Assembly (NCBI GenBank): GCA_963769605.1
Contig: CAVYML010000003.1
Span: forward strand, 490,562 to 554,561
From: Ignavibacteriota bacterium
GTDB taxonomy: Bacteria; Bacteroidota; Ignavibacteria; UBA10030
Length of the DNA: 64,000 nucleotides
Direction of reading: 5' to 3'
Shown: positions 24,948-50,542 of the stretch, piece after piece
Numbering within the stretch: the stretch's first letter is position 1
How the letters are laid out: the number at the start of each line of letters is the position of its first letter
Translations under genes and position numbers: made by a program
Notes under the pieces: generated by a model
What the model saw: only the letters and a program-made list of their open reading frames with translations
Database searches by the model: none
What the model was told of the DNA's origin: nothing

Positions 24948-24992
24948 GAAGCGGGTTTGCTTCTCTTTTCTTTAATCGATACTTTAGAAATT

Positions 24993-26555
24993 ATGAAAAA
25001 GACCAAAAGAATATTATGGGTGGATGACGAAATCGATATGCTCCGCCCGCACCTTCGAATTCTGGAACAAAAAGGATACGAAGTCGAGACGGCGACTAAT
25101 GGCGACGACGCAATAATGCTCGTAAGAACGAAAAAATTTGATCTTGTCTTTCTCGATGAAATGATGCCCGGAATCGGAGGTCTGCAGACACTCGGTGCTT
25201 TGAAGGATCTGGAACCGGCGCTGCCGGTTGTCATGGTAACGAAGAATGAGGCGGAGAGTCTGATGGAAGAAGCGATAGGCGGGAAAATCACGGATTACCT
25301 GACAAAACCGGTCAATCCGAGTCAGATTCTTCTTGCATGCAAGAAAATATTCGAATCGAAAGAGATCGGCGACGCTCATGTCTCTCGAAATTATGTTGAA
25401 GAATTTCAGACCATCAACGATGTATTGTACGATCCCTTAAATCAGGAAGAATGGATCGAAATCTATAAAAAAATGACGGAATGGGACAGGGAACTCGATG
25501 CACATTCAGATCTTGGACTGCGGCAGACGCTGCTCGATCAGCGGCGGGAGGCAAATGCAAAATTTGCAAAATATGTCGAGAGTTCCTACAGGAAATGGCT
25601 TGAACAGCCGAATCGTGCGATTGCTCTCTCGCCCGATGTTGTCGAGCGATATGTGTTTCCGCAAATAAACGATTCCTGTTCGCTCTTTTTTATCGTCGTG
25701 GATTGTCTTCGGTACGACCAGTGGCTGGTGATGGAACAGATGCTGTCGGAATATTTTACGTTCGAGAAAAATTTTTATTTCAGTATCTTGCCTACGGCAA
25801 CACCGTATTCCCGCAATGCTATTTTCAGCGGGCTGTTTCCGTCAGAACTTCAAAAACGTTTTCCAGAGATATGGCAGGAGGGGGAAGACGATGAAAGCAG
25901 CCGAAACCGATATGAACATGAATTGTTGAACCGGCTTCTTGAACGAAAATTCACAAAGACCAAAACGGAAGCAAGATATGTAAAGATCTTAGACGCAGAA
26001 TTTGGAAAACAAATTGAATCGAATATTCTTTCGTATCTTCCAAACCGGTTAACCGCTATAGTCGTCAATTTTATCGATATGCTGGCGCATGGACGATCCG
26101 ATTCTCCCATTCTTAAGGAAATTGCTCCGGATGAAGCTGCCTATCGCACGCTCACGAGATCATGGTTTCAACATTCATCTCTCTTCGGTATGTTAAAAAC
26201 GCTGAGCCGGCAAAAAAATGTTAAGATCATCCTTACCACGGATCATGGAAGCGTGCGCTGCCTGCGCGGTGCAAAAGTTCTCGGGGACCGCGAAGCCTCC
26301 GCGAATTTGCGGTTCAAGTACGGACGCAATTTGAAGGTGGAAGAAAAGAATGCCTTCATTATGAAAAATCCCTCAGAGTATAACCTTCCAAAGGACAGCG
26401 TAACGACAAACTACATTATCGCTAAAGAAGATTATTATTTCGTTTATCCGACGGATTATCATAAGTACTTGAATTATTACCGCGATAGTTTTCAGCACGG
26501 AGGAATATCTCTTGAAGAGATGATTCTGCCGATTGTCAAGATGGAACCAAAATGA
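24993..26555 (+). CDS. porX: PorX-like response regulator: CheY-like receiver plus PglZ (alkaline-phosphatase superfamily) domain.
   Basis: MKKTKRILWVDDEIDML...DLVFLDEMMPGIGG...TKP receiver. Then PglZ motifs FIVVDCLRYDQW and ILTTDHGS. An alternative upstream start at 24957 is possible. Confidence 0.8.
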   Translation: MKKTKRILWVDDEIDMLRPHLRILEQKGYEVETATNGDDAIMLVRTKKFDLVFLDEMMPGIGGLQTLGALKDLEPALPVVMVTKNEAESLMEEAIGGKITDYLTKPVNPSQILLACKKIFESKEIGDAHVSRNYVEEFQTINDVLYDPLNQEEWIEIYKKMTEWDRELDAHSDLGLRQTLLDQRREANAKFAKYVESSYRKWLEQPNRAIALSPDVVERYVFPQINDSCSLFFIVVDCLRYDQWLVMEQMLSEYFTFEKNFYFSILPTATPYSRNAIFSGLFPSELQKRFPEIWQEGEDDESSRNRYEHELLNRLLERKFTKTKTEARYVKILDAEFGKQIESNILSYLPNRLTAIVVNFIDMLAHGRSDSPILKEIAPDEAAYRTLTRSWFQHSSLFGMLKTLSRQKNVKIILTTDHGSVRCLRGAKVLGDREASANLRFKYGRNLKVEEKNAFIMKNPSEYNLPKDSVTTNYIIAKEDYYFVYPTDYHKYLNYYRDSFQHGGISLEEMILPIVKMEPK

Positions 26556-26998
26556 TCGCCGAACAAGCGACGCAATCGGTGCAAGAGACCATTGTGTTTG
26601 CACAAACGTTTGCGAGCTTATTGCGGCGCGGAGATATCGTTGCCATCTACGGCGATCTGGGAAGCGGTAAAACACAGTTTGTCAAAGGGGCATGCAAAGC
26701 ATTGCATGCTGCATCGTCCATTGTAAGCCCGACGTTCGTGCTCCTCCATCGGTACGAAGGCCGTGACCATACAGGCAAAGAACTGCTGCTCTACCATCTT
26801 GACCTGTATCGTATTCAATCGCCGAACGAAATCTACGATCTTGGATACGAAGAATTTTTCGGCGGTGCAGGAATCACCTTCATTGAATGGGCGGAAAAGC
26901 TGGGAGAACTTTTGCCGAAACGCCGCTATGATGTGCACTGTTCTTACGGCGAAAAGGAAAACGAACGCGCCATTAAGATCGAGTTGCTTGAGGAGTAA
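26552..26998 (+). CDS. tsaE: tRNA t6A37 biosynthesis ATPase TsaE (YjeE).
   Basis: P-loop IYGDLGSGKTQFVKG and the YHxDxYRI motif. Start overlaps the porX stop (ATGA). Confidence 0.8.
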   Translation: MIAEQATQSVQETIVFAQTFASLLRRGDIVAIYGDLGSGKTQFVKGACKALHAASSIVSPTFVLLHRYEGRDHTGKELLLYHLDLYRIQSPNEIYDLGYEEFFGGAGITFIEWAEKLGELLPKRRYDVHCSYGEKENERAIKIELLEE

Positions 26999-41317: not shown

Positions 41318-41690
41318 TGCAAAGAAGGGCTGCAAATCTGTTCGGCAAAAAAAAACGATCAATTCGGAGGAAAAAAAGAAAGATGCTGAAAGGACAAAAG
41401 AATCAGTACTGGACAAATTGTATTTTCGGCAAATCGGGTCAGATCATGAAGAGACGCAGACGAAAAGCCGGCCTCGCGGGAATTCGTATCTCAATTGTGT
41501 TAAATTACGCTGAGCAATTGCTGTCTAAAATTATTTGTTCGATGAAAACGGACATGGACATTTCTGTCCGGCTATTTTTAATGTTGCGCGAGGTGCGGTA
41601 AATTGTAAATTCACCAAAGAGGATCAGATTAATCAGAATTGAGGACGAACGAATTCGAAGCCGCGCATCATCTATGTCGGTAAAACATTC

Positions 41691-42224
41691 TTAAGAATGT
41701 ATTTCGCACAATGACGATGCAACAGGGAAATTATGGATATTTGCCTTCGGTATTTCTCTGAGTTGTTGAAATCGCTTCAATTTACCGCGAAGAGCCGCAA
41801 GCAGATTTTGTTCTTTTATAGGTTTGACAAGGTAATCATCTGCGCCCATTTCTTTTCCTGTTCGAATCATCACATCATCATTAAGTCCGCTTAAAAAAAT
41901 GAATGGAACCTGCTTCAAATGCTCGATTTCCTGGACTTTCTCAAAAAAAGTGAATCCTCCCATCGTAGATGTTTCGAGACTGATGTCGCATAGAATAATA
42001 TCAGGCGTGAATTTCTGCAGAAGAACATAGGCTTCATCCGACGTGCTCAGCGGCATCACTTCAAATCCGTCGGATTCAATGCTCAAACTGAGAGCTGCAA
42101 GCAGGTCTTTATCATCATCGATGACAACAACTTTGGGCGGCAGTCTGATTTCATTGTCATTCCCTTTTCCACTGGAATCGGCAATTAGCGAAAAGGGGGC
42201 TCGCTGTTGAAACTTGTTTGAAAT
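41691..42224 (-). CDS. Single-domain response-regulator receiver. The full REC domain has no canonical start codon and is in frame with the upstream ORF across a single TGA.
   Basis: REC motifs KVVVIDDD...DIILCDISL...KP. The only ATG (42086) would delete beta1 and the acidic pocket. The frame is open back to the TGA at 42227..42225. Confidence 0.5.
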   Translation of the reverse strand: MSNKFQQRAPFSLIADSSGKGNDNEIRLPPKVVVIDDDKDLLAALSLSIESDGFEVMPLSTSDEAYVLLQKFTPDIILCDISLETSTMGGFTFFEKVQEIEHLKQVPFIFLSGLNDDVMIRTGKEMGADDYLVKPIKEQNLLAALRGKLKRFQQLREIPKANIHNFPVASSLCEIHS

Positions 42225-42647
42225 TCAACCTGCCGTGGGAATGTTACTTTGCTGGACATGAGGAACTGTGCTTGTAACTGACAAAGCAATCTGATTGATA
42301 TTCTGAGGCAATACCACGGAAACTTGCGGCAATGATTTTTTGTCGCCTTCTCTTCCGGCGTTTATTACGAGCTCAGGTTGACTTTTTATTTGTTCTTTTT
42401 GTCGCTGTGTTTTCGATTGTTCGGCGATTAAACCACGTATTCGTTCTTCAAGTGCGAACGCATAAGCGTTTTGCGGGTCGATCATTTTTGCAGATGCCGT
42501 CTCAAGGAGCGCTCTCTGCAAATCTTTGGCTTTTATCAATTGGTCGACGCGCTTAAGGACTTCACTTGCCATTTTTCTTTTTTCATCAAGTTCTTTCAAT
42601 TGAGGCTGTCCTTCTATGAATACTCTATGGTTTATATTTGCCGTCAT
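42225..42647 (-). CDS. Hypothetical coiled-coil protein. It may be the N-terminal part of a fusion with the downstream receiver.
   Basis: 140 aa, charged and low-complexity. Its TGA stop is in frame with the REC ORF. Confidence 0.45.
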   Translation of the reverse strand: MTANINHRVFIEGQPQLKELDEKRKMASEVLKRVDQLIKAKDLQRALLETASAKMIDPQNAYAFALEERIRGLIAEQSKTQRQKEQIKSQPELVINAGREGDKKSLPQVSVVLPQNINQIALSVTSTVPHVQQSNIPTAG

Positions 42648-42676
42648 TTACGTATCCCGGTTTTTATATGTTTTTA

Positions 42677-43237
42677 TTATACATTGATCATTGCTTTCAG
42701 TGATACCATTTTACCCCAATAGGAGCCTATTGATTCAGTTTTATATTGTTGGGCTTTTGAAAAACCGGAAAGCGCCGCCTGAATTCTATCTACGGATTGT
42801 TCGGCATGCGACAATTCAAGAATAACCGTTTTATTATTGAGAGCCGCTTTACGTGCTGCCTCCATAGAAAGCACAATGACTGCAAGAGGATTGTTGATAT
42901 GATGCTGTAAACCGCGCACGGTTTCCTGCATTGTCAAAAGTTGTGTTTGGTGGATCTCCAGTTCTTTTTCCGCGAGAATTCGCTGTTGTTCGCTTTCATA
43001 GAGTTTCGTTCGTACTTGAATGATTTTAACCAATGCCACGGAAAGAAACCACATAAAAGGAAGAGCGGAAAATATCGTAAAAATATCGTAAAAGCCGAGT
43101 GGGAACGCTTTTGCCTTCATAAAAAAATGAATGATTGAAACAAGCAAATAGGCATAGATCACAAAACCGGATAAGACGGCCGGGTAACGTGAAAAATAAT
43201 TATTTGCAATTTGTAAAAATCGACGTATAATTCGCAT
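42677..43237 (-). CDS. Membrane-anchored protein carrying only an NtrB-type DHp (HisKA) domain, with no ATPase domain.
   Basis: Two N-terminal TMs, a coiled coil, and the H-box GLQHHINNPLAVIVLSME (compare NtrB AHEIKNPL). It ends about 60 aa later with no HATPase_c. Confidence 0.6.
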   Translation of the reverse strand: MRIIRRFLQIANNYFSRYPAVLSGFVIYAYLLVSIIHFFMKAKAFPLGFYDIFTIFSALPFMWFLSVALVKIIQVRTKLYESEQQRILAEKELEIHQTQLLTMQETVRGLQHHINNPLAVIVLSMEAARKAALNNKTVILELSHAEQSVDRIQAALSGFSKAQQYKTESIGSYWGKMVSLKAMINV

Positions 43238-43473
43238 AACAATCCTCCTTTAAGGTGTTCTTTCCGGATGTCAACTAATTCTGTCGCAAATCCTATGCCA
43301 TCCATTCCGCCGCTTTAGATGTAACTGCATTCATTGCCGGCATTCGACGACGAACCGGGGATTTGATACTGAGGAGGAAAAATAGTAGTTTCATGCTGGA
43401 GGCAGGGACTTGCGTACTTGCTTTTCCGGGGTTGCAGGAGATATTTCTTTATTATTTTAAAGGGGACAAACGC

Positions 43474-44139
43474 ATGAAGAATAAGCAAACCAGAATATTG
43501 ATCGTGGATGATGACCCGGGCTACGCAGAAGGAATCTCCATCCTGCTTGAGTCTGAAGGTTATTTTTGCGATGCAGTGAATGATGCTAAGGCCGCAATAA
43601 AGAAACTTGACAACAAGAATTTTGAGATTCTTCTTGTCGATTGGCAAATGCCTGAAATGAGCGGTGTAGAGCTTATTGAGCGAATACGATCACATCCCGA
43701 TCACCGGCAAAAATATATCATCATGGTCTCCGGAAAGGGCGCTCTTGAAGATAAAGTTACTGGAATGGACGTAGGAGCTAATGATTATTTGGTCAAACCA
43801 TTTGAATCGCAAGAACTGCTCGCACGAATCAGAGCCGCAATTCGCATCCTCGAATTGGAGCAAGAGCTTATTGAACAGGAAAGAAGAAGTACTGTTCTTG
43901 AAATGGCTTTATCTATTACGGATAAAATCGGCAACCCGCTGTCTGCAGCGTGCTTTTTGCAGCAATATATTCATGAAAACGCACAAGATTATACAAAAGT
44001 CAAACAATCGATTGATGATTTAGGAACAGCGCTGCTTGAAATACAGGAACTCTTAAAAAAATATCAGTCGATAAAGAATCCGAAAACGATTCCAGCGGCT
44101 ATGGGCAAAAGAATGATCGATCCGGAAAGCGAAAAATAG
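43474..44139 (+). CDS. Response regulator: REC plus a C-terminal DHp-like helical domain in which the phospho-His position is Asp.
   Basis: ATG 43474 with an AAAGGGGA RBS. REC ILIVDDD...LVDWQMPEMSG...KP. The C-terminus LSITDKIGNPLSAACFL parallels the H-box of the 42677 protein. Confidence 0.7.
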   Translation: MKNKQTRILIVDDDPGYAEGISILLESEGYFCDAVNDAKAAIKKLDNKNFEILLVDWQMPEMSGVELIERIRSHPDHRQKYIIMVSGKGALEDKVTGMDVGANDYLVKPFESQELLARIRAAIRILELEQELIEQERRSTVLEMALSITDKIGNPLSAACFLQQYIHENAQDYTKVKQSIDDLGTALLEIQELLKKYQSIKNPKTIPAAMGKRMIDPESEK

Positions 44140-44215
44140 AAAGATGTTCCGCAAGAATCGAACGATCTTAAAATTTGCGATCTCTTTGATATCGAAAGTT
44201 CTCTAAGGATAAAAC

Positions 44216-45583
44216 ATGAAACAAATCATTAAAGTCCTTGTCGTTGACGACGATGAATCATACCGTGAAGGATTAAAAAGCATTCTCGAAGCAGAAGGAT
44301 ATGAAGTAAAAACTGTCGTCGATGGTATTACGGCTATCAACATTATGCAGTCGAGTCAGTTCGATCTCATACTTCTCGATATTGTCATGCCGATTGTAAG
44401 CGGTATGGATGTATTGAAAAATATCAAGAACAGTTTCTATGAGTGCGAAGTAGTCATGCTGACGGGAGAAAATGATATTCATACGGCCGTTGAAAGCATC
44501 AAACTTGGCGCATACGATTATCTCCTTAAACCATGTTCGGGAACAGAAATTCTTAATACGATCAGCAGAGCGGTCGAGCGAAAACGACTTCTCTTGCAGA
44601 ATAAAGCGCTGAAGACAGAACTTGCAAGAGTTGCTGCATCCACACAGATTGTAACGCAGAATCCGGCAATGCTGGAAATACTGAATTTAGCCATGAAAGT
44701 CGCCCCGACCGATGCGACCGTATTGATTCAAGGGGAAAGCGGGACTGGAAAAGAACTTATTGCAAATTATATCCATAGCAACAGTCTGCGGAAAGAACAG
44801 CCGTTCGTTGTGCTCAATTGTGCTTCCATGCAGGAAACATTGCTTGAGAGCGAACTTTTTGGGCACGAAAAAGGTGCTTTTACGGATGCAAGCAAGGAAA
44901 AACAGGGCCTGGTAGAAATTGCCAATGGGGGAACACTCTTTCTTGATGAGATAGGAGAAATATCGCCTGTTATTCAACCGAAATTGCTGCGGTTTGTTCA
45001 GAGCGGAGAATACCGGAGGCTGGGAGGAACCCGGACATTGCAATCCGACGTAAGAATTTTATCTGCGACCAATAAAAATCTTATTGAGGAAGTGAAGCAG
45101 GGACGTTTTCGGGAAGATCTTTTATATCGGATGAACGTTTTTACTTTGGAATTGCCTCCTTTAAGGAATCACAAAGAAGACATTCCATTTCTTGTCGATA
45201 ATTTTTTAAAGCGGCGATATGGCAAAATAAATGGATGGGAAGTTGCAGAGGATGCGCTTACAGCGCTTCGTCAATATGAATGGCCCGGCAACGTGCGTGA
45301 ATTGGAGAATGTTATAGAGCGTGCGACTATCGTTGCCGATGAACGAACGATACAGTCTAAAGACCTGGCTGTTCTTCTGAGATCGCGGGTATTGAAAAAC
45401 GAATTTGCAGAATCAGGAGATATAGGAATTGGCAAGCTTATTGCACTAAGGGAAATAGAAAAAGTTCATATTTCAGGAGTTCTCAATGCGGTAGGATGGG
45501 ACAAGAATCTCGCGGCAAAAATTCTCGATATTAATATCAAAACACTTTATATAAGAATCCAGACTTATGGACTTACACATTAA
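44216..45583 (+). CDS. Sigma-54-dependent transcriptional activator of the NtrC family (REC-AAA+-HTH).
   Basis: REC, Walker A GESGTGKE, the GAFTDA (GAFTGA) motif, and a C-terminal Fis-type HTH. Confidence 0.9.
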   Translation: MKQIIKVLVVDDDESYREGLKSILEAEGYEVKTVVDGITAINIMQSSQFDLILLDIVMPIVSGMDVLKNIKNSFYECEVVMLTGENDIHTAVESIKLGAYDYLLKPCSGTEILNTISRAVERKRLLLQNKALKTELARVAASTQIVTQNPAMLEILNLAMKVAPTDATVLIQGESGTGKELIANYIHSNSLRKEQPFVVLNCASMQETLLESELFGHEKGAFTDASKEKQGLVEIANGGTLFLDEIGEISPVIQPKLLRFVQSGEYRRLGGTRTLQSDVRILSATNKNLIEEVKQGRFREDLLYRMNVFTLELPPLRNHKEDIPFLVDNFLKRRYGKINGWEVAEDALTALRQYEWPGNVRELENVIERATIVADERTIQSKDLAVLLRSRVLKNEFAESGDIGIGKLIALREIEKVHISGVLNAVGWDKNLAAKILDINIKTLYIRIQTYGLTH

Positions 45584-45678
45584 AAATATTCCGAATAACA
45601 CAATTCGCCATTCAAAAATTGCCATGTACCATATAGATCCCCACTTGGGCGGGAAGACATTTTTAGGCTTCCGCCTGC

Positions 45679-45727
45679 CATTTACCATTTACCATTTACT
45701 ATTTTCCATTTACTATTTACTATTCAC
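45679..45727. repeat. Seven tandem copies of a 7-bp unit (CATTTAC/TATTTAC) directly upstream of the 45739 gene.
   Basis: catttac catttac catttac tattttc catttac tatttac tattcac. Confidence 0.7.
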
Positions 45728-45738
45728 CTGAAATTATC

Positions 45739-46362
45739 ATGATTACAAAGCAGTCATTAAAAGTACTAATCGCTGAAGATCAGGAAGCCCTCATTCTGCT
45801 GATTCAGCTTCAATTAGAAAAGATCGGACACACAGTTATCGGCAAGGCAATAAATGGTCTTCAAGCGGTTGCACTTGCAGGTCAACTCCGGCCCGACGTG
45901 ATCTTAATGGATATCGAGATGCCCGAAATGGACGGCCTTGAAGCTGCTCGTCTGGTTCAGGAAAAGTATCCCTGTCCTGTAGTGCTGCTTACTTCACACG
46001 ATGAGCCTGAAATGATAAGACGCGCCAGTCAGATAGGTGTCGGAGCTTATCTCCTGAAACCTCCAAGAGCAGGGGAAATTGAACGCGCGATGATTATGGC
46101 GGTTGCACGGTTTGCCGATCTTACGGAACTGCGCCGCCTGAATAACGAATTGAAAATAGCTCTTGAGAATGTGAAGACATTAAGAGGGTTGCTGCCGATC
46201 TGTGCAAGCTGTAAAAAAATCCGGAACGATAAGGGATATTGGGAGGCCGTGGAAGGATATTTCACCAAACACAGCGAAGTCCAATTCTCTCACGGCATTT
46301 GTCCCGATTGCATCAAAAAATATTACCCGGAGTTTATACCGAAGATGTCAAAAAAAGATTAA
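45739..46362 (+). CDS. Response regulator: REC plus a C-terminal 4-Cys (CxxC...CxxC) zinc-ribbon-like domain.
   Basis: REC LIAEDQ...ILMDIEMPEMDG...KP. Tail LPICASCKKIRNDKGYWEAVEGYFTKHSEVQFSHGICPDC. Confidence 0.75.
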   Translation: MITKQSLKVLIAEDQEALILLIQLQLEKIGHTVIGKAINGLQAVALAGQLRPDVILMDIEMPEMDGLEAARLVQEKYPCPVVLLTSHDEPEMIRRASQIGVGAYLLKPPRAGEIERAMIMAVARFADLTELRRLNNELKIALENVKTLRGLLPICASCKKIRNDKGYWEAVEGYFTKHSEVQFSHGICPDCIKKYYPEFIPKMSKKD

Positions 46363-46406
46363 AGATATACCCGTAGCGCAATAATTCCGAAATTCTTCAT
46401 TGTAGT

Positions 46407-46434
46407 CCCGAAGACATTGTCAAATGTCTTCGGG
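46407..46434. promoter_or_regulatory. Perfect 12-bp inverted repeat (hairpin or palindrome) at the 5' edge of the duplicated kinase leader.
   Basis: cccgaagacatt-gtca-aatgtcttcggg. The homologous copy at 50643..50666 keeps the pairing through two compensatory changes. Confidence 0.45.
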
Positions 46435-46699
46435 ATGGTCGCGGATGCTGTAGCTTCGAAAAGATCTAATAATGTTTTCGGGATAGTTTCAGATGTTCCG
46501 AGATCATCCGCGACGATCCGTCGCGGCTACAGTGCGATCAATCCTATTTGGTGAAAATACAATTCTAAGTCAGTGTGATCAGCCCTCAAATTCCGGTTTT
46601 TTATCGGAATTCAATATATATCAGGCAAATCCTCCTCTTTCCCGCATTCTAAAGACTGGCATATCGTGTGTAAAATATACGGAAAGGCAGTAGAGAAAA
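46416..46699 (+). repeat. Copy 1 of the duplicated non-coding leader upstream of the paralogous hybrid kinases.
   Basis: About 80-85% identical to 50651..50982. Shared blocks: attgtcaaat, ggtcgcggatg(c/t)tgtagcttcgaaaa, caatcctatttggtgaaaatacaattctaa, taaagaNctggca. Confidence 0.65.
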
Positions 46700-49600
46700 A
46701 TGGAGGATATGCAAATGCGAAAAATCATAAAATTGCCGGCGCTGGTGACGATGACATCGGTCATTTCGATCGTCCTTTGGGAGCAGACAAATTTTTCAAG
46801 TCTTTTCAATGAGCATCTCTGGCTCCTAGGAGCCGCAGTGATCTTCCTTGCATTGATTATTTCTCCCCTTTTTGGATTCTTTTGGTACCGTCAACGTATG
46901 CGATACTACGGCCTCCAATATGAAATGGCACAAAAAGAAAATCGTATGCGCGATGAATTGAAGGAAAGCGAAAACAAATCAAAGGAAATACTTGAAGATG
47001 CCGCGGTGGGATATCATGAATTAGACACGAAAGGACGTATCGTCCAAACGAGCCGCGCTGAACTTGCGATGTTAGGATACACGCAGGATGAAATGCTGGG
47101 AGAATATATCTGGAAATTTGTCGAGGAAGAAGAGGCGCTGCAGATGAAAGTGCTCGCAATACTGAGTGGAAGGATGTCCCCATCTGGAGATGCGTACGAG
47201 CGAACATTCCGGCGGAAAGACGGAAATACTTTTTTTGTTTTAATGGAAGACCGTCTGCTGAGAGACGACGATGGAAAGATTATTGGCATTCGTACGACCA
47301 TCGAGAATATCAACATGCAGAAACAGGCAAAAGAAAGCATCCAGGAAAGCGAAGAGAAGTTCCGCGCGATCGCAACACTGGCAAACGATGCCATTCTTTT
47401 GATGGATGATGATGGTGCGATTTCAATGTGGAATCAAGCGGCAGAAAAAATCTTCGGTTATACGGAGGAAGAGGCGCTGGGTAAGACGCTTCATAAACTT
47501 TTAGTTCCGACCCAATACTACGAAAGTTCTACTCACGGATTCGAGCGCTTCCGGACGACGGGTGAAGGAAGTGCAATCGGTAAGACGCTCGAGCTGTCGG
47601 CGCTTCGGAAAGACGGCGCTGAATTTCCGATTTCACTTTCCCTCTCTTCTTTTAAACTGAACGGAAAGTGGAATGCGGTCGGCATTATTCGAGATATAAC
47701 CGAGCGCAGGCACGCGGAAGAGGAACTGCAGGAAAGCGAAAATAAATACCGATGCATTTTTGAAAATGTGCAGGATGTGTATTACGAGACATTGATCGAC
47801 GGCACGATACTCGAAATTAGTCCTTCCATCGGGTATATATCGAAAGGACAGTACAGCAGGAATGAGCTCATAGGAAAATCGGCAAACGAGTTTTATTCCA
47901 ATGATGATGAACGAGAGGGTCTCCTTTTGGCATTAAAGGAGCGCGGAAGTATTATGGATTTTGAAATAACTATGAAGAACCGGGATGGTTCATTCATTCC
48001 CTGTTCTATATCTGCAAAAATCCAATTCAATGCTCAAGGCGCTCCAGCAAAAATAATAGGCAGCATTCGAGATATTACTAAACGTAAACGGGTGGAAGAG
48101 GCATTGAAGGTAAACGAACTGCGTTTTCGCTCACTGTACGAAAATACCACAATCGGTCTTTATCGAACGACACCCGATGGAAATATACTTCTCGCAAATC
48201 CGGCATTAGTAAAAATGCTTGGCTATAAGTCTTTTCAAGACCTTGCCCAAAGAAACCTTGAAAAAGATGGTTTCGAACCTTCCTATCAGCGTAAAGAGTT
48301 TCTTGGAAAAATCGAAAGAGACGGCGAAGTGAAAAATCTTGAGTCAACATGGATAGATCAGGATGGCGCCACCATCGTTGTTCTGGAGAACGCTCGCGCT
48401 ATCCGGGATTCTCAAAATAAAACTATTTTTTACGATGGAACAGTCGAGGACATAACCAATTGGAAGCGAGCGGGAGAAGCATTGGCCAAAGAACATAATC
48501 TTCTTCAAATGCTCATGGATAATATTCCTGACGGTATTTATTTCAAGGATACGGAAAGCCGTTTTATTCAAGTTAATATGGCTCAGGCCCGTCATCTTGG
48601 TTTGACCAATCCCGAAGAAATGATAAACAAGACAGACTTCGATTTTTTCAGTGAAGAACACGCACGGCCGGCGTATGAAGATGAGCAGGAAATTATGCGC
48701 TCCGGAATACCAATAGTGGGAAAAGCGGAAAAAGAGATATGGCATGATGGGAAAGAAGGATGGGTTTCCAGCACCAAGATGCCTCTTCGCGATCATGAGG
48801 GGCAAATTATCGGAACATTCGGTTTATCGCGGGACATAACCGAGGCCAAACAGATACAGAACGCATTGAAAGAAGCCAAAGAAGCAGCAGAAGCCGCAGT
48901 CAAGGCAAAATCAGAATTTCTTGCCGTCATGAGTCATGAAATCCGCACGCCGATGAACGGCGTAATCGGCATGACCGACCTGCTTGAACATACCGAGCTT
49001 ACAACCGAACAAGCAGACTATGTCGAAACAATCCGTGTGAGCGGAGAGACATTGCTTGCCGTTATCAACGACATTCTCGATTTTTCTAAAATTGAAGCGA
49101 GCAAGATAGAATTAGAGGAAGAGCCGTTTGAATTGAATGTATGCATAGAAGAAGTTTTCGATCTCCTTGCGCCTCGATCGCGTCAGAAAAATTTGGACTT
49201 GTTGTACCGGATCGATCCAGATATCCCGCAGTTTATTGTGGGAGACCGGCTCCGTTTGCGCCAGATACTATATAACCTGGTCGGCAATGCTGTTAAATTT
49301 ACGGAAAAGGGAGAGATTATGATTTCTGTCGGATTGAATAGTCAGAACAATAAAGCGCTCGAGCTTCTCTTTGCAGTGAAAGATACTGGCATTGGAATTC
49401 CTATTCATAAACTTGAAAAATTATTTAAGCCTTTCTCACAGGCGGATTCATCCATCACGCGGAGGTACGGTGGTACGGGTCTTGGCCTTGCAATCAGCAT
49501 GCGCTTGGTGGAACTCATGGGCGGAAGCATCCGGGCGGAAAGCATAGAAGGAGAGGGTTCAAATTTCGTTTTTACAATGAAGACGTCTGTTCCTCAAAAC

Positions 49601-50542
49601 GAATTGAATATATCCAAATCGTATCTTCATGAGAACGAATTTGAACTTGCAAACAAACGGGTGCTCATTGTCGATGATAATAAAACTAATCTTCAGATCC
49701 TCAAAGAATTGTGTCAGGTATGGAAACTTATTCCACGTACTACTTCTTCGCCGGCTGAGGCCCTGAGATGGATCACGCGGGAAGATCCTTTCGATCTTGC
49801 GATCTTCGATCTTCAAATGCCTGAAATGGACGGTATTCAGCTTGCAACCGAAGTACGAAAGCAGCGGCCAAAAGAAGCGCTTCCATTTATTCTCTTTTCG
49901 TCTCTTGGAACGAATGTCACAGGATCGGATATACCCGCCGATCTATTCCAAAAACAGATATTTAAACCGGTAAAACAATCGCAGCTTTTTAATGCTATTC
50001 TTGAAGTTCTTGCCGGAAAAAAATTCCTGCAGGAAAGAAGAATGAAGACTGTGCAAAAAGAAGAGGGGATTGCTCTTGGACATGCACTGGTTAAAATATT
50101 GATTGCAGAAGACGGTTTCGTCAATAAAAAAATCCTTCTGCGGATGTTGAAACAAATCGGATGCTATGCAGATGTGGTGTCCGATGGACTGCAGGCAGTG
50201 AAAGCAGTTGAGGCCGTTCATTATGACATCGTCTTCATGGATGTGCACATGCCTGAAATGGACGGACTCGAAGCAACAAGGAAGATCGTCAATTCCCGTA
50301 TGGCAAACGAACGTCCGAAGATCATTGCGCTTACGGCGGATGCGATGTCCGGAGATAAAGAAAAGTGCATCGAAGCCGGAATGGACGATTACATCACCAA
50401 GCCGGTGCGGCTGGAGGAAGTCATTTCTGCGGTAAAGCGATGGGCTCCGGCTCAGGCAAATTTTACAGCGGAAAGTGATAAGAAAGAGAAACAATTCGCT
50501 GTCGGTGAGACTTGCACTTTTGGTCTTGCCAAAGCCGGATAA
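46700..50542 (+). CDS. Hybrid sensor kinase HK1: 2 TM, five PAS, HisKA, HATPase, two receivers.
   Basis: 1280 aa. H-box [14 protein letters not shown]. Two canonical C-terminal REC domains. Paralog of the 50983 gene, with two extra PAS modules. Confidence 0.9.
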   Translation: MEDMQMRKIIKLPALVTMTSVISIVLWEQTNFSSLFNEHLWLLGAAVIFLALIISPLFGFFWYRQRMRYYGLQYEMAQKENRMRDELKESENKSKEILEDAAVGYHELDTKGRIVQTSRAELAMLGYTQDEMLGEYIWKFVEEEEALQMKVLAILSGRMSPSGDAYERTFRRKDGNTFFVLMEDRLLRDDDGKIIGIRTTIENINMQKQAKESIQESEEKFRAIATLANDAILLMDDDGAISMWNQAAEKIFGYTEEEALGKTLHKLLVPTQYYESSTHGFERFRTTGEGSAIGKTLELSALRKDGAEFPISLSLSSFKLNGKWNAVGIIRDITERRHAEEELQESENKYRCIFENVQDVYYETLIDGTILEISPSIGYISKGQYSRNELIGKSANEFYSNDDEREGLLLALKERGSIMDFEITMKNRDGSFIPCSISAKIQFNAQGAPAKIIGSIRDITKRKRVEEALKVNELRFRSLYENTTIGLYRTTPDGNILLANPALVKMLGYKSFQDLAQRNLEKDGFEPSYQRKEFLGKIERDGEVKNLESTWIDQDGATIVVLENARAIRDSQNKTIFYDGTVEDITNWKRAGEALAKEHNLLQMLMDNIPDGIYFKDTESRFIQVNMAQARHLGLTNPEEMINKTDFDFFSEEHARPAYEDEQEIMRSGIPIVGKAEKEIWHDGKEGWVSSTKMPLRDHEGQIIGTFGLSRDITEAKQIQNALKEAKEAAEAAVKAKSEFLAVMSHEIRTPMNGVIGMTDLLEHTELTTEQADYVETIRVSGETLLAVINDILDFSKIEASKIELEEEPFELNVCIEEVFDLLAPRSRQKNLDLLYRIDPDIPQFIVGDRLRLRQILYNLVGNAVKFTEKGEIMISVGLNSQNNKALELLFAVKDTGIGIPIHKLEKLFKPFSQADSSITRRYGGTGLGLAISMRLVELMGGSIRAESIEGEGSNFVFTMKTSVPQNELNISKSYLHENEFELANKRVLIVDDNKTNLQILKELCQVWKLIPRTTSSPAEALRWITREDPFDLAIFDLQMPEMDGIQLATEVRKQRPKEALPFILFSSLGTNVTGSDIPADLFQKQIFKPVKQSQLFNAILEVLAGKKFLQERRMKTVQKEEGIALGHALVKILIAEDGFVNKKILLRMLKQIGCYADVVSDGLQAVKAVEAVHYDIVFMDVHMPEMDGLEATRKIVNSRMANERPKIIALTADAMSGDKEKCIEAGMDDYITKPVRLEEVISAVKRWAPAQANFTAESDKKEKQFAVGETCTFGLAKAG

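Follow-up and report, generated by a model that had tools for sequence, protein, structure and literature searches.

A response-regulator-type gene split by one in-frame TGA: a likely recent nonsense allele in an Ignavibacteriota bacterium

The stretch of DNA analysed here (hereafter the window) comprises 64,000 nucleotides of an Ignavibacteriota genome (GenBank assembly GCA_963769605.1, contig CAVYML010000003.1, positions 490,562 to 554,561) and contains a response-regulator-type gene on the minus strand (41691..42647) that is interrupted by a single in-frame TGA. Comparison with orthologues and with near-identical assemblies indicates that this TGA is likely a very recent CGA-to-TGA nonsense allele, one that is real and predominates in one sampled population, with the intact gene present in other samples.

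The gene occupies one reading frame of 318 codons plus a TAA. Translation of this frame runs from an ATG at 42647 to the TAA at 41693..41691, and the only internal stop is the TGA at 42227..42225 (codon 141), followed by an A. The first-pass annotation had placed an upstream open reading frame (42225..42647) and a receiver reading frame in one frame, with exactly one stop between them, and both points agree with our translation. From the TGA allele, 140 codons are translated (42228..42647, minus strand, in the list of open reading frames). This exact 140-aa product is on public record (P0121), both on a 933,552-nt contig, presumed to be the source of the window, and on a Logan contig (L083). 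The 177 codons past the TGA contain a complete receiver (REC) domain. As had also been claimed, this domain lacks a start codon of its own: the codon table gives no in-frame ATG, GTG or TTG from the TGA to the first beta strand (KVVVIDDD, from 42134). The earliest in-frame restart codons (42054..42088, minus strand; codon table and list of open reading frames) are a TTG at 42086, a GTG at 42059 and an ATG at 42056, and all three are located 3' of beta1 and the acidic pocket (DDD). The earlier statement that the first restart would remove these two elements is therefore correct, except that the codon at 42086 had been given as ATG; it is a TTG, and the first in-frame ATG is the one at 42056, which public annotation takes as the start of the 121-aa remnant (P0122). 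Promoter and terminator scans around the gene (41691..42647) gave scores at the level of shuffled sequence.

Relatives of the gene encode one protein. With the conceptual fusion of both halves as query, a search found continuous single proteins of about 290-350 aa that span both halves (P0002-P0032), with E values down to 1e-179; the 25 closest homologues, with 43-69% identity, are all of this kind. Because these closest homologues are continuous across both halves, the two open reading frames are one gene. Two separate genes in orthologues, the layout that the first-pass annotation had named as speaking against a joined frame, were found in no close orthologue. All 25 orthologues have a sense codon at the position of codon 141, and a further public protein, 100% identical to the window protein (P0001), has Arg at the stop position. 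In the three orthologues with 65-69% identity (P0002, P0003 and P0004), the codon is CGA, CGG and CGA, respectively. A sense codon in relatives had thus been rightly anticipated, although as Trp (TGG) or Cys (TGY) and not as the Arg (CGA) that is actually there.

Two further searches added little to this set. A search of genome contigs for related loci gave, among the matches listed, only distant receiver proteins (26-43% identity, over the REC part) and no orthologue. A search with the N-terminal 100 residues gave seven candidates, with the known full-length orthologues missing among them, and one new match, P0131. This 137-aa protein comes from a frameshift on L097, a contig rich in indels, and does not represent a natural split gene; on that contig, the intact P0003 maps in frame 1 for residues 1-100 and in frame 3 for residues 97-318. 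The contig (ENA ERZ25039480 contig_59440) aligns to L002 with 32 gap openings over 4.4 kb, and each gene of the cluster is fragmented on it (the sigma-54 activator lies in four pieces), which calls for caution with public gene calls from this ENA accession series.

The intact 318-aa protein has three parts. A conserved helical region lies at the N-terminus and a REC domain at the C-terminus, and about 80 disordered residues link them. An AlphaFold2 model of the intact allele, together with the conserved alignment columns, places the helical region at residues 14-88 (42384..42608, minus strand), with helices at 14-39, 43-56 and 61-88 (pLDDT 83-92). The label 'coiled-coil' that had been given to the upstream reading frame is not borne out, since the model has three helices and then a disordered linker. 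In alignments with the 25 homologues, the best-conserved N-terminal stretch covers approximately residues 20-75, and the invariant columns are L31, V34, D35, I38, K39, A46, E49, D57, N60, Y62, A65, E67, E68 and L73. Searches with this region against Pfam and PDB sequences returned no match, and Pfam gave none anywhere in the 140 codons before the TGA. The linker (about residues 89-167; 42147..42383, minus strand; AlphaFold2 and alignment) has pLDDT below 35 at residues 88-166, and the 80-100 residues that follow the conserved N-terminal stretch form variable, gap-rich alignment columns. Codon 141 is located in the middle of this linker, and the residues found in its alignment column are R, L, T, P, N, Q and K.

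The REC domain (41787..42131, minus strand), which the TGA deprives of a start codon, matches PF00072 over its full length (profile positions 1-111 of 111, E=1.1e-21, 77.5 bits against a cut-off of 30.2). In the model the receiver fold spans residues 170-300. PDB receiver-domain matches span residues 170-301 (best E=7.6e-17) and concern the receiver part only. D177, D178, D179, D221, K275 and P276 are invariant across 26 sequences, and position 253 is S or T (FLSGL/FLTGL) across the aligned sequences. The domain therefore shares with CheY-like receivers (PF00072) a full-length REC, the acidic pocket (D177/D178/D179), the phospho-acceptor position D221, S/T at 253 and the K275-P276 pair. It differs in being placed C-terminally, after a helical region that carries no annotation and a linker that is long and disordered, and the Pfam and PDB searches and the AlphaFold2 model gave no recognisable output domain in the intact protein. 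C-terminal-receiver proteins of this kind, that is, lacking a recognisable output domain, seem abundant in metagenome bins of Ignavibacteria/Bacteroidota. In addition, a related larger family (approximately 375-415 aa, P0027-P0120) has a REC of 60-68% identity that is preceded by longer helical regions, and its Tic110- and ENT-like matches are marginal.

The stretch directly before beta1 could suggest another arrangement, in which there are two genuine genes and the receiver is made alone. Translation would then begin at an ATT, ATC or CTG start, or at an out-of-frame ATG (42160 or 42154) followed by a -1 slip on the heptamer C_CCA_AAG (42137..42131). The elements for such a start are present between 42131 and 42160 on the minus strand: the purine-rich GGAAAAGGGA precedes ATG ACA ATG, a heptamer of the form X_XXY_YYZ stands just before beta1, and a one-base shift there gives MTMKSDCRPKVVVIDDD, a typical receiver N-terminus. 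However, orthologues code through the same stretch in the receiver frame, as linker and with no start there, and the intact allele yields a single protein of 318 aa (P0124). Moreover, just one other N-terminal product is recorded on its own, and this is P0131, the frameshift product described above. We therefore give this arrangement next to no credence. A programmed -1 frameshift was likewise rejected: C_CCA_AAG is present, yet relatives use the receiver frame without a break both across the heptamer and upstream of it. Because of this continuity, the ATG ACA ATG and the heptamer before beta1 are evidently a coincidence.

Before the TGA is read as a mutation, it has to be asked whether the organism decodes UGA as a sense codon. 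Genome-wide reassignment of UGA (genetic codes 4 and 25) is excluded. TGA terminates 12 of the 38 open reading frames of at least 150 codons in the window, and the PorX-type (REC+PglZ) gene stops at a TGA that overlaps the ATG of the TsaE gene (ATGA at 26552; gene pair at 24948..26998, plus strand). This bears out the earlier view that TGA is an ordinary stop elsewhere in the window and that recoding of the whole genome is unlikely. Other pairs of open reading frames that are in frame across a stop in the window are either adjacent genes with a start a few codons from the stop or apparently spurious frames, such as those at 49945 and 44689, which lie antisense inside larger genes.

Recoding could also be confined to this gene. 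Programmed UGA readthrough is known from the coat-protein extension (A1 protein) of phage Qbeta. Our case resembles it in that a UGA is followed by an in-frame, functional-looking extension, and near-cognate decoding by Trp-tRNA would serve for any leakage. Applied here, programmed recoding (stimulated readthrough or selenocysteine insertion) would yield the fusion of the N-terminal region to REC as a regulated product. The reading frame 3' of the stop is indeed intact and complete, and the stop has an A in fourth position, a context in which UGA terminates comparatively weakly according to four-base studies in E. coli. UGA is also the leakiest stop in E. coli (PMC10570021). Comparison with orthologues nevertheless largely refutes a programmed event, because a programmed stop would be kept among relatives, whereas this TGA appears private to one sample. 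A sense codon occupies the position in 25 of 25 orthologues and in four near-identical assemblies, the closest relatives have Arg (CGA/CGG) and not Cys or Sec, and the site falls in a variable, disordered linker. In the Qbeta case, by contrast, the stop is conserved and both products are needed. Four other long open reading frames in the window, all among the 12 that end in TGA, have the same TGA-A context. Altogether, programmed recoding is very improbable. Readthrough, programmed or leaky, had been one of the explanations proposed in the first pass, and it is not supported, given the absence of the stop from the 25 orthologues and the four assemblies; the other two, a recent nonsense mutation and a sequencing error, are the ones that remain to be weighed.

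A selenoprotein was considered in its own right and rejected. Selenocysteine is inserted at UGA with the help of a downstream SECIS hairpin in genes such as E. coli fdhF, and the likeness here is limited to an in-frame UGA within a coding sequence. The relatives have Arg, their alignment column (R/L/T/P/N/Q/K) contains neither Cys nor Sec, and the position belongs to a disordered linker and not to a catalytic site. An Rfam search of 41500-42800 at a permissive threshold gave three chance-level snoRNA matches, far below their gathering scores, and no SECIS or readthrough family. The window holds no tRNA-Sec or suppressor tRNA; its only tRNAs are Thr(cgt) and Ser(tga).

The origin of the TGA can be traced in near-identical copies of the locus. 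Four public assemblies of essentially the strain of the window (L001, L091/L094, L092/L093 and L095) have CGA (Arg) at codon 141. The window, on what we take to be the 933,552-nt source contig, has a T at 42227. An ENA assembly (ERZ25039466; L094/L091) reads C there and differs at this single base in 8,561 nt, and a Logan assembly of run ERR11523654 (L095) reads C and differs at this single base in 4,618 nt. The NCBI assembly GCA_049288255.1 (L001, the contig of P0001) reads C and differs twice in 3,751 nt, at 42227 and at 42018. The latter site (minus strand) is synonymous, with CTG (Leu) in the window, L083, L091 and L095, and CTT in L001. A second ENA assembly (ERZ25039473; L093/L092) represents a more divergent strain, about 99.4-99.5% identical over 5.2 kb, and also reads C. 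The copy in L094 encodes the intact 318-aa P0124, a protein otherwise identical to that of the window. The TGA allele recurs in one separate short assembly, the Logan contig of run ERR11523656 (L083), with a T and 0 differences from the window in 1,979 nt. CGA in the near-identical copies, together with CGA/CGG in more distant orthologues, shows that Arg is ancestral at codon 141 and that the window carries a C-to-T transition. An exact 31-mer with N at the variable base had no match in a metagenome contig collection, so the strain is absent from that collection.

Several minor features of these assemblies are worth recording. The differences at 42227 and 42018 both alter palindromes (TCGA in L001 to TTGA in the window, and CTTCAG in L001 to CTGCAG in the window). 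This may be a coincidence, and it would become relevant if long-read data and methylation motifs were involved. Several independent assemblies also break within or beside this gene: both Logan contigs (L083 and L095) end at 41950, and two contigs of GCA_049288255.1 end at 42558 (L001) and at 42603 (L096). Breakpoints at 41950, 42558 and 42603 suggest strain heterogeneity at the locus in the sampled populations. In the more divergent strain (ERZ25039473, approximately 99.4-99.5% identical), positions 3574-3620 of L092 hold a 47-nt diverged tandem copy, which amounts to an insertion before window position 42075. The copy carries its own TAA and resembles a P0002-type allele, and the gene calls on this contig are of 202 and 121 aa. 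It is either an assembly artefact in which haplotypes were joined or a real duplication.

Given this distribution, the remaining question is whether the T is in the organism or in the data. We infer that the allele is real from the comparison of assemblies, with the single gene, the ancestral CGA and the allele distribution as its observed basis. If instead the T at 42227 were a sequencing or consensus error, the organism would really have CGA and an intact gene. Such an error would look like what is observed, one base that departs from copies matching everywhere else (the single mismatch in 8,561 nt to L094 and in 4,618 nt to L095). Only one sample shows the T, which is restricted to the source of the window and one run. 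The ENA series uses 'contig_N' names and includes the indel-rich L097, which would suggest long-read data. Furthermore, the variable base lies inside a TCGA palindrome that, speculatively, could be a methylation motif. Against an error, the Logan assembly of ERR11523656 comes from a different pipeline and reproduces both the T at 42227 and the G at 42018, although it may share reads with the source assembly of the window, so this excludes an assembler artefact and not a base-calling error. A systematic miscall driven by context is disfavoured: the surrounding sequence is identical in ERR11523654 and the two ENA assemblies, yet all three have a C, so that such a miscall would need to be sample-specific. 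The window shows no indel over 8.5 kb against the four other assemblies, which indicates that its consensus is good here. The sequence 3' of the TGA shows no secondary decay, which fits a very recent event and an error alike. On balance, an error is possible but rather unlikely, and we retain a recent nonsense allele as the likely reading.

What the allele would do to the protein can be predicted step by step. In this genome copy, the C-to-T transition would turn codon 141 from CGA (Arg) into TGA, and RF2 would terminate at UGA141 to leave a 140-aa fragment made up of the helical region and half of the linker. The receiver would not be made from the TGA allele, because there is no start codon ahead of beta1, and a protein restarted at 42086, 42059 or 42056 would have neither beta1 nor the acidic pocket. 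The sole route to a full-length protein would be unprogrammed near-cognate decoding of UGA by Trp-tRNA, at a low level, giving an R141W product. In an E. coli reporter, UGA readthrough amounts to about 2% at 37 C and about 4% at 25 C, with Trp-tRNA competing with RF2 (PMC10570021), values that may differ in this organism. Residue 141 is part of a non-conserved, disordered linker, and for this reason the leakage product is probably functional, judging from the alignment and the model. Since only low-level leakage would give full-length product, the TGA allele is best described as a predicted null or strong hypomorph and not as a designed two-product gene.

Nonsense changes of this kind are already known. 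With nonsense pseudogenes and strain-level loss-of-function polymorphisms, the window's gene shares a single substitution from sense to stop, an intact gene in sister strains and orthologues, an ancestral codon (CGA) one transition away from TGA, and an undecayed coding sequence past the stop. The continuous protein in 25 orthologues, the intact P0124 and the four sense-codon assemblies are all in keeping with this class. Nothing essential sets our case apart; here the allele is known from assemblies.

A bolder version of the nonsense reading would hold that the allele is not just real but favoured in one habitat. Loss or strong down-tuning of the regulator would then be adaptive, background leakage would still provide full-length protein at a few per cent, and the gene would be a recurrent target of inactivation in this lineage. 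A hint of this is that L092 has a second, different disruption and that several assemblies fragment at the gene, but we consider the scenario improbable.

The nonsense allele, as the likely reading, has practical consequences. In annotation, the two open reading frames should be one interrupted gene (a pseudogene or nonsense allele), whereas public gene calls give a 140-aa hypothetical protein and a 121-aa truncated receiver. In screening for recoding, an in-frame TGA followed by an intact domain mimics a recoded gene, and here a private C-to-T change, revealed by near-identical assemblies, accounts for the pattern. Provided that the allele is real, a two-component signalling cluster of this uncultured bacterium (Bacteroidota/Ignavibacteria-type) varies within the species.

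The neighbourhood of the gene is largely conserved at orthologous loci, where the neighbours are a 186-aa protein, a receiver protein transcribed divergently, a sigma-54 activator of NtrC type, another receiver, a hybrid kinase and, downstream, a protein with a type IX secretion sorting domain. In the window, the upstream neighbour is the 186-aa protein (42677..43237, minus strand, 29 nt away), which is conserved beside the gene at orthologous loci. This protein has hydrophobic N-terminal segments, an H-box-like motif (LQHHINNPLAV) and no ATPase domain, and its HisKA match is weak (E=4e-4, below the cut-off); it could serve the receiver protein as a DHp-only partner. On the plus strand, a dense run of two-component genes (43363..50542) adjoins the gene. 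It starts with a receiver protein. Next come the NtrC-type sigma-54 activator at 44216..45583 and, at 45739..46362, another receiver protein of 207 aa. The run ends with a hybrid histidine kinase of 1,280 aa (46700..50542), in which five PAS domains are combined with HisKA, HATPase and two receivers.
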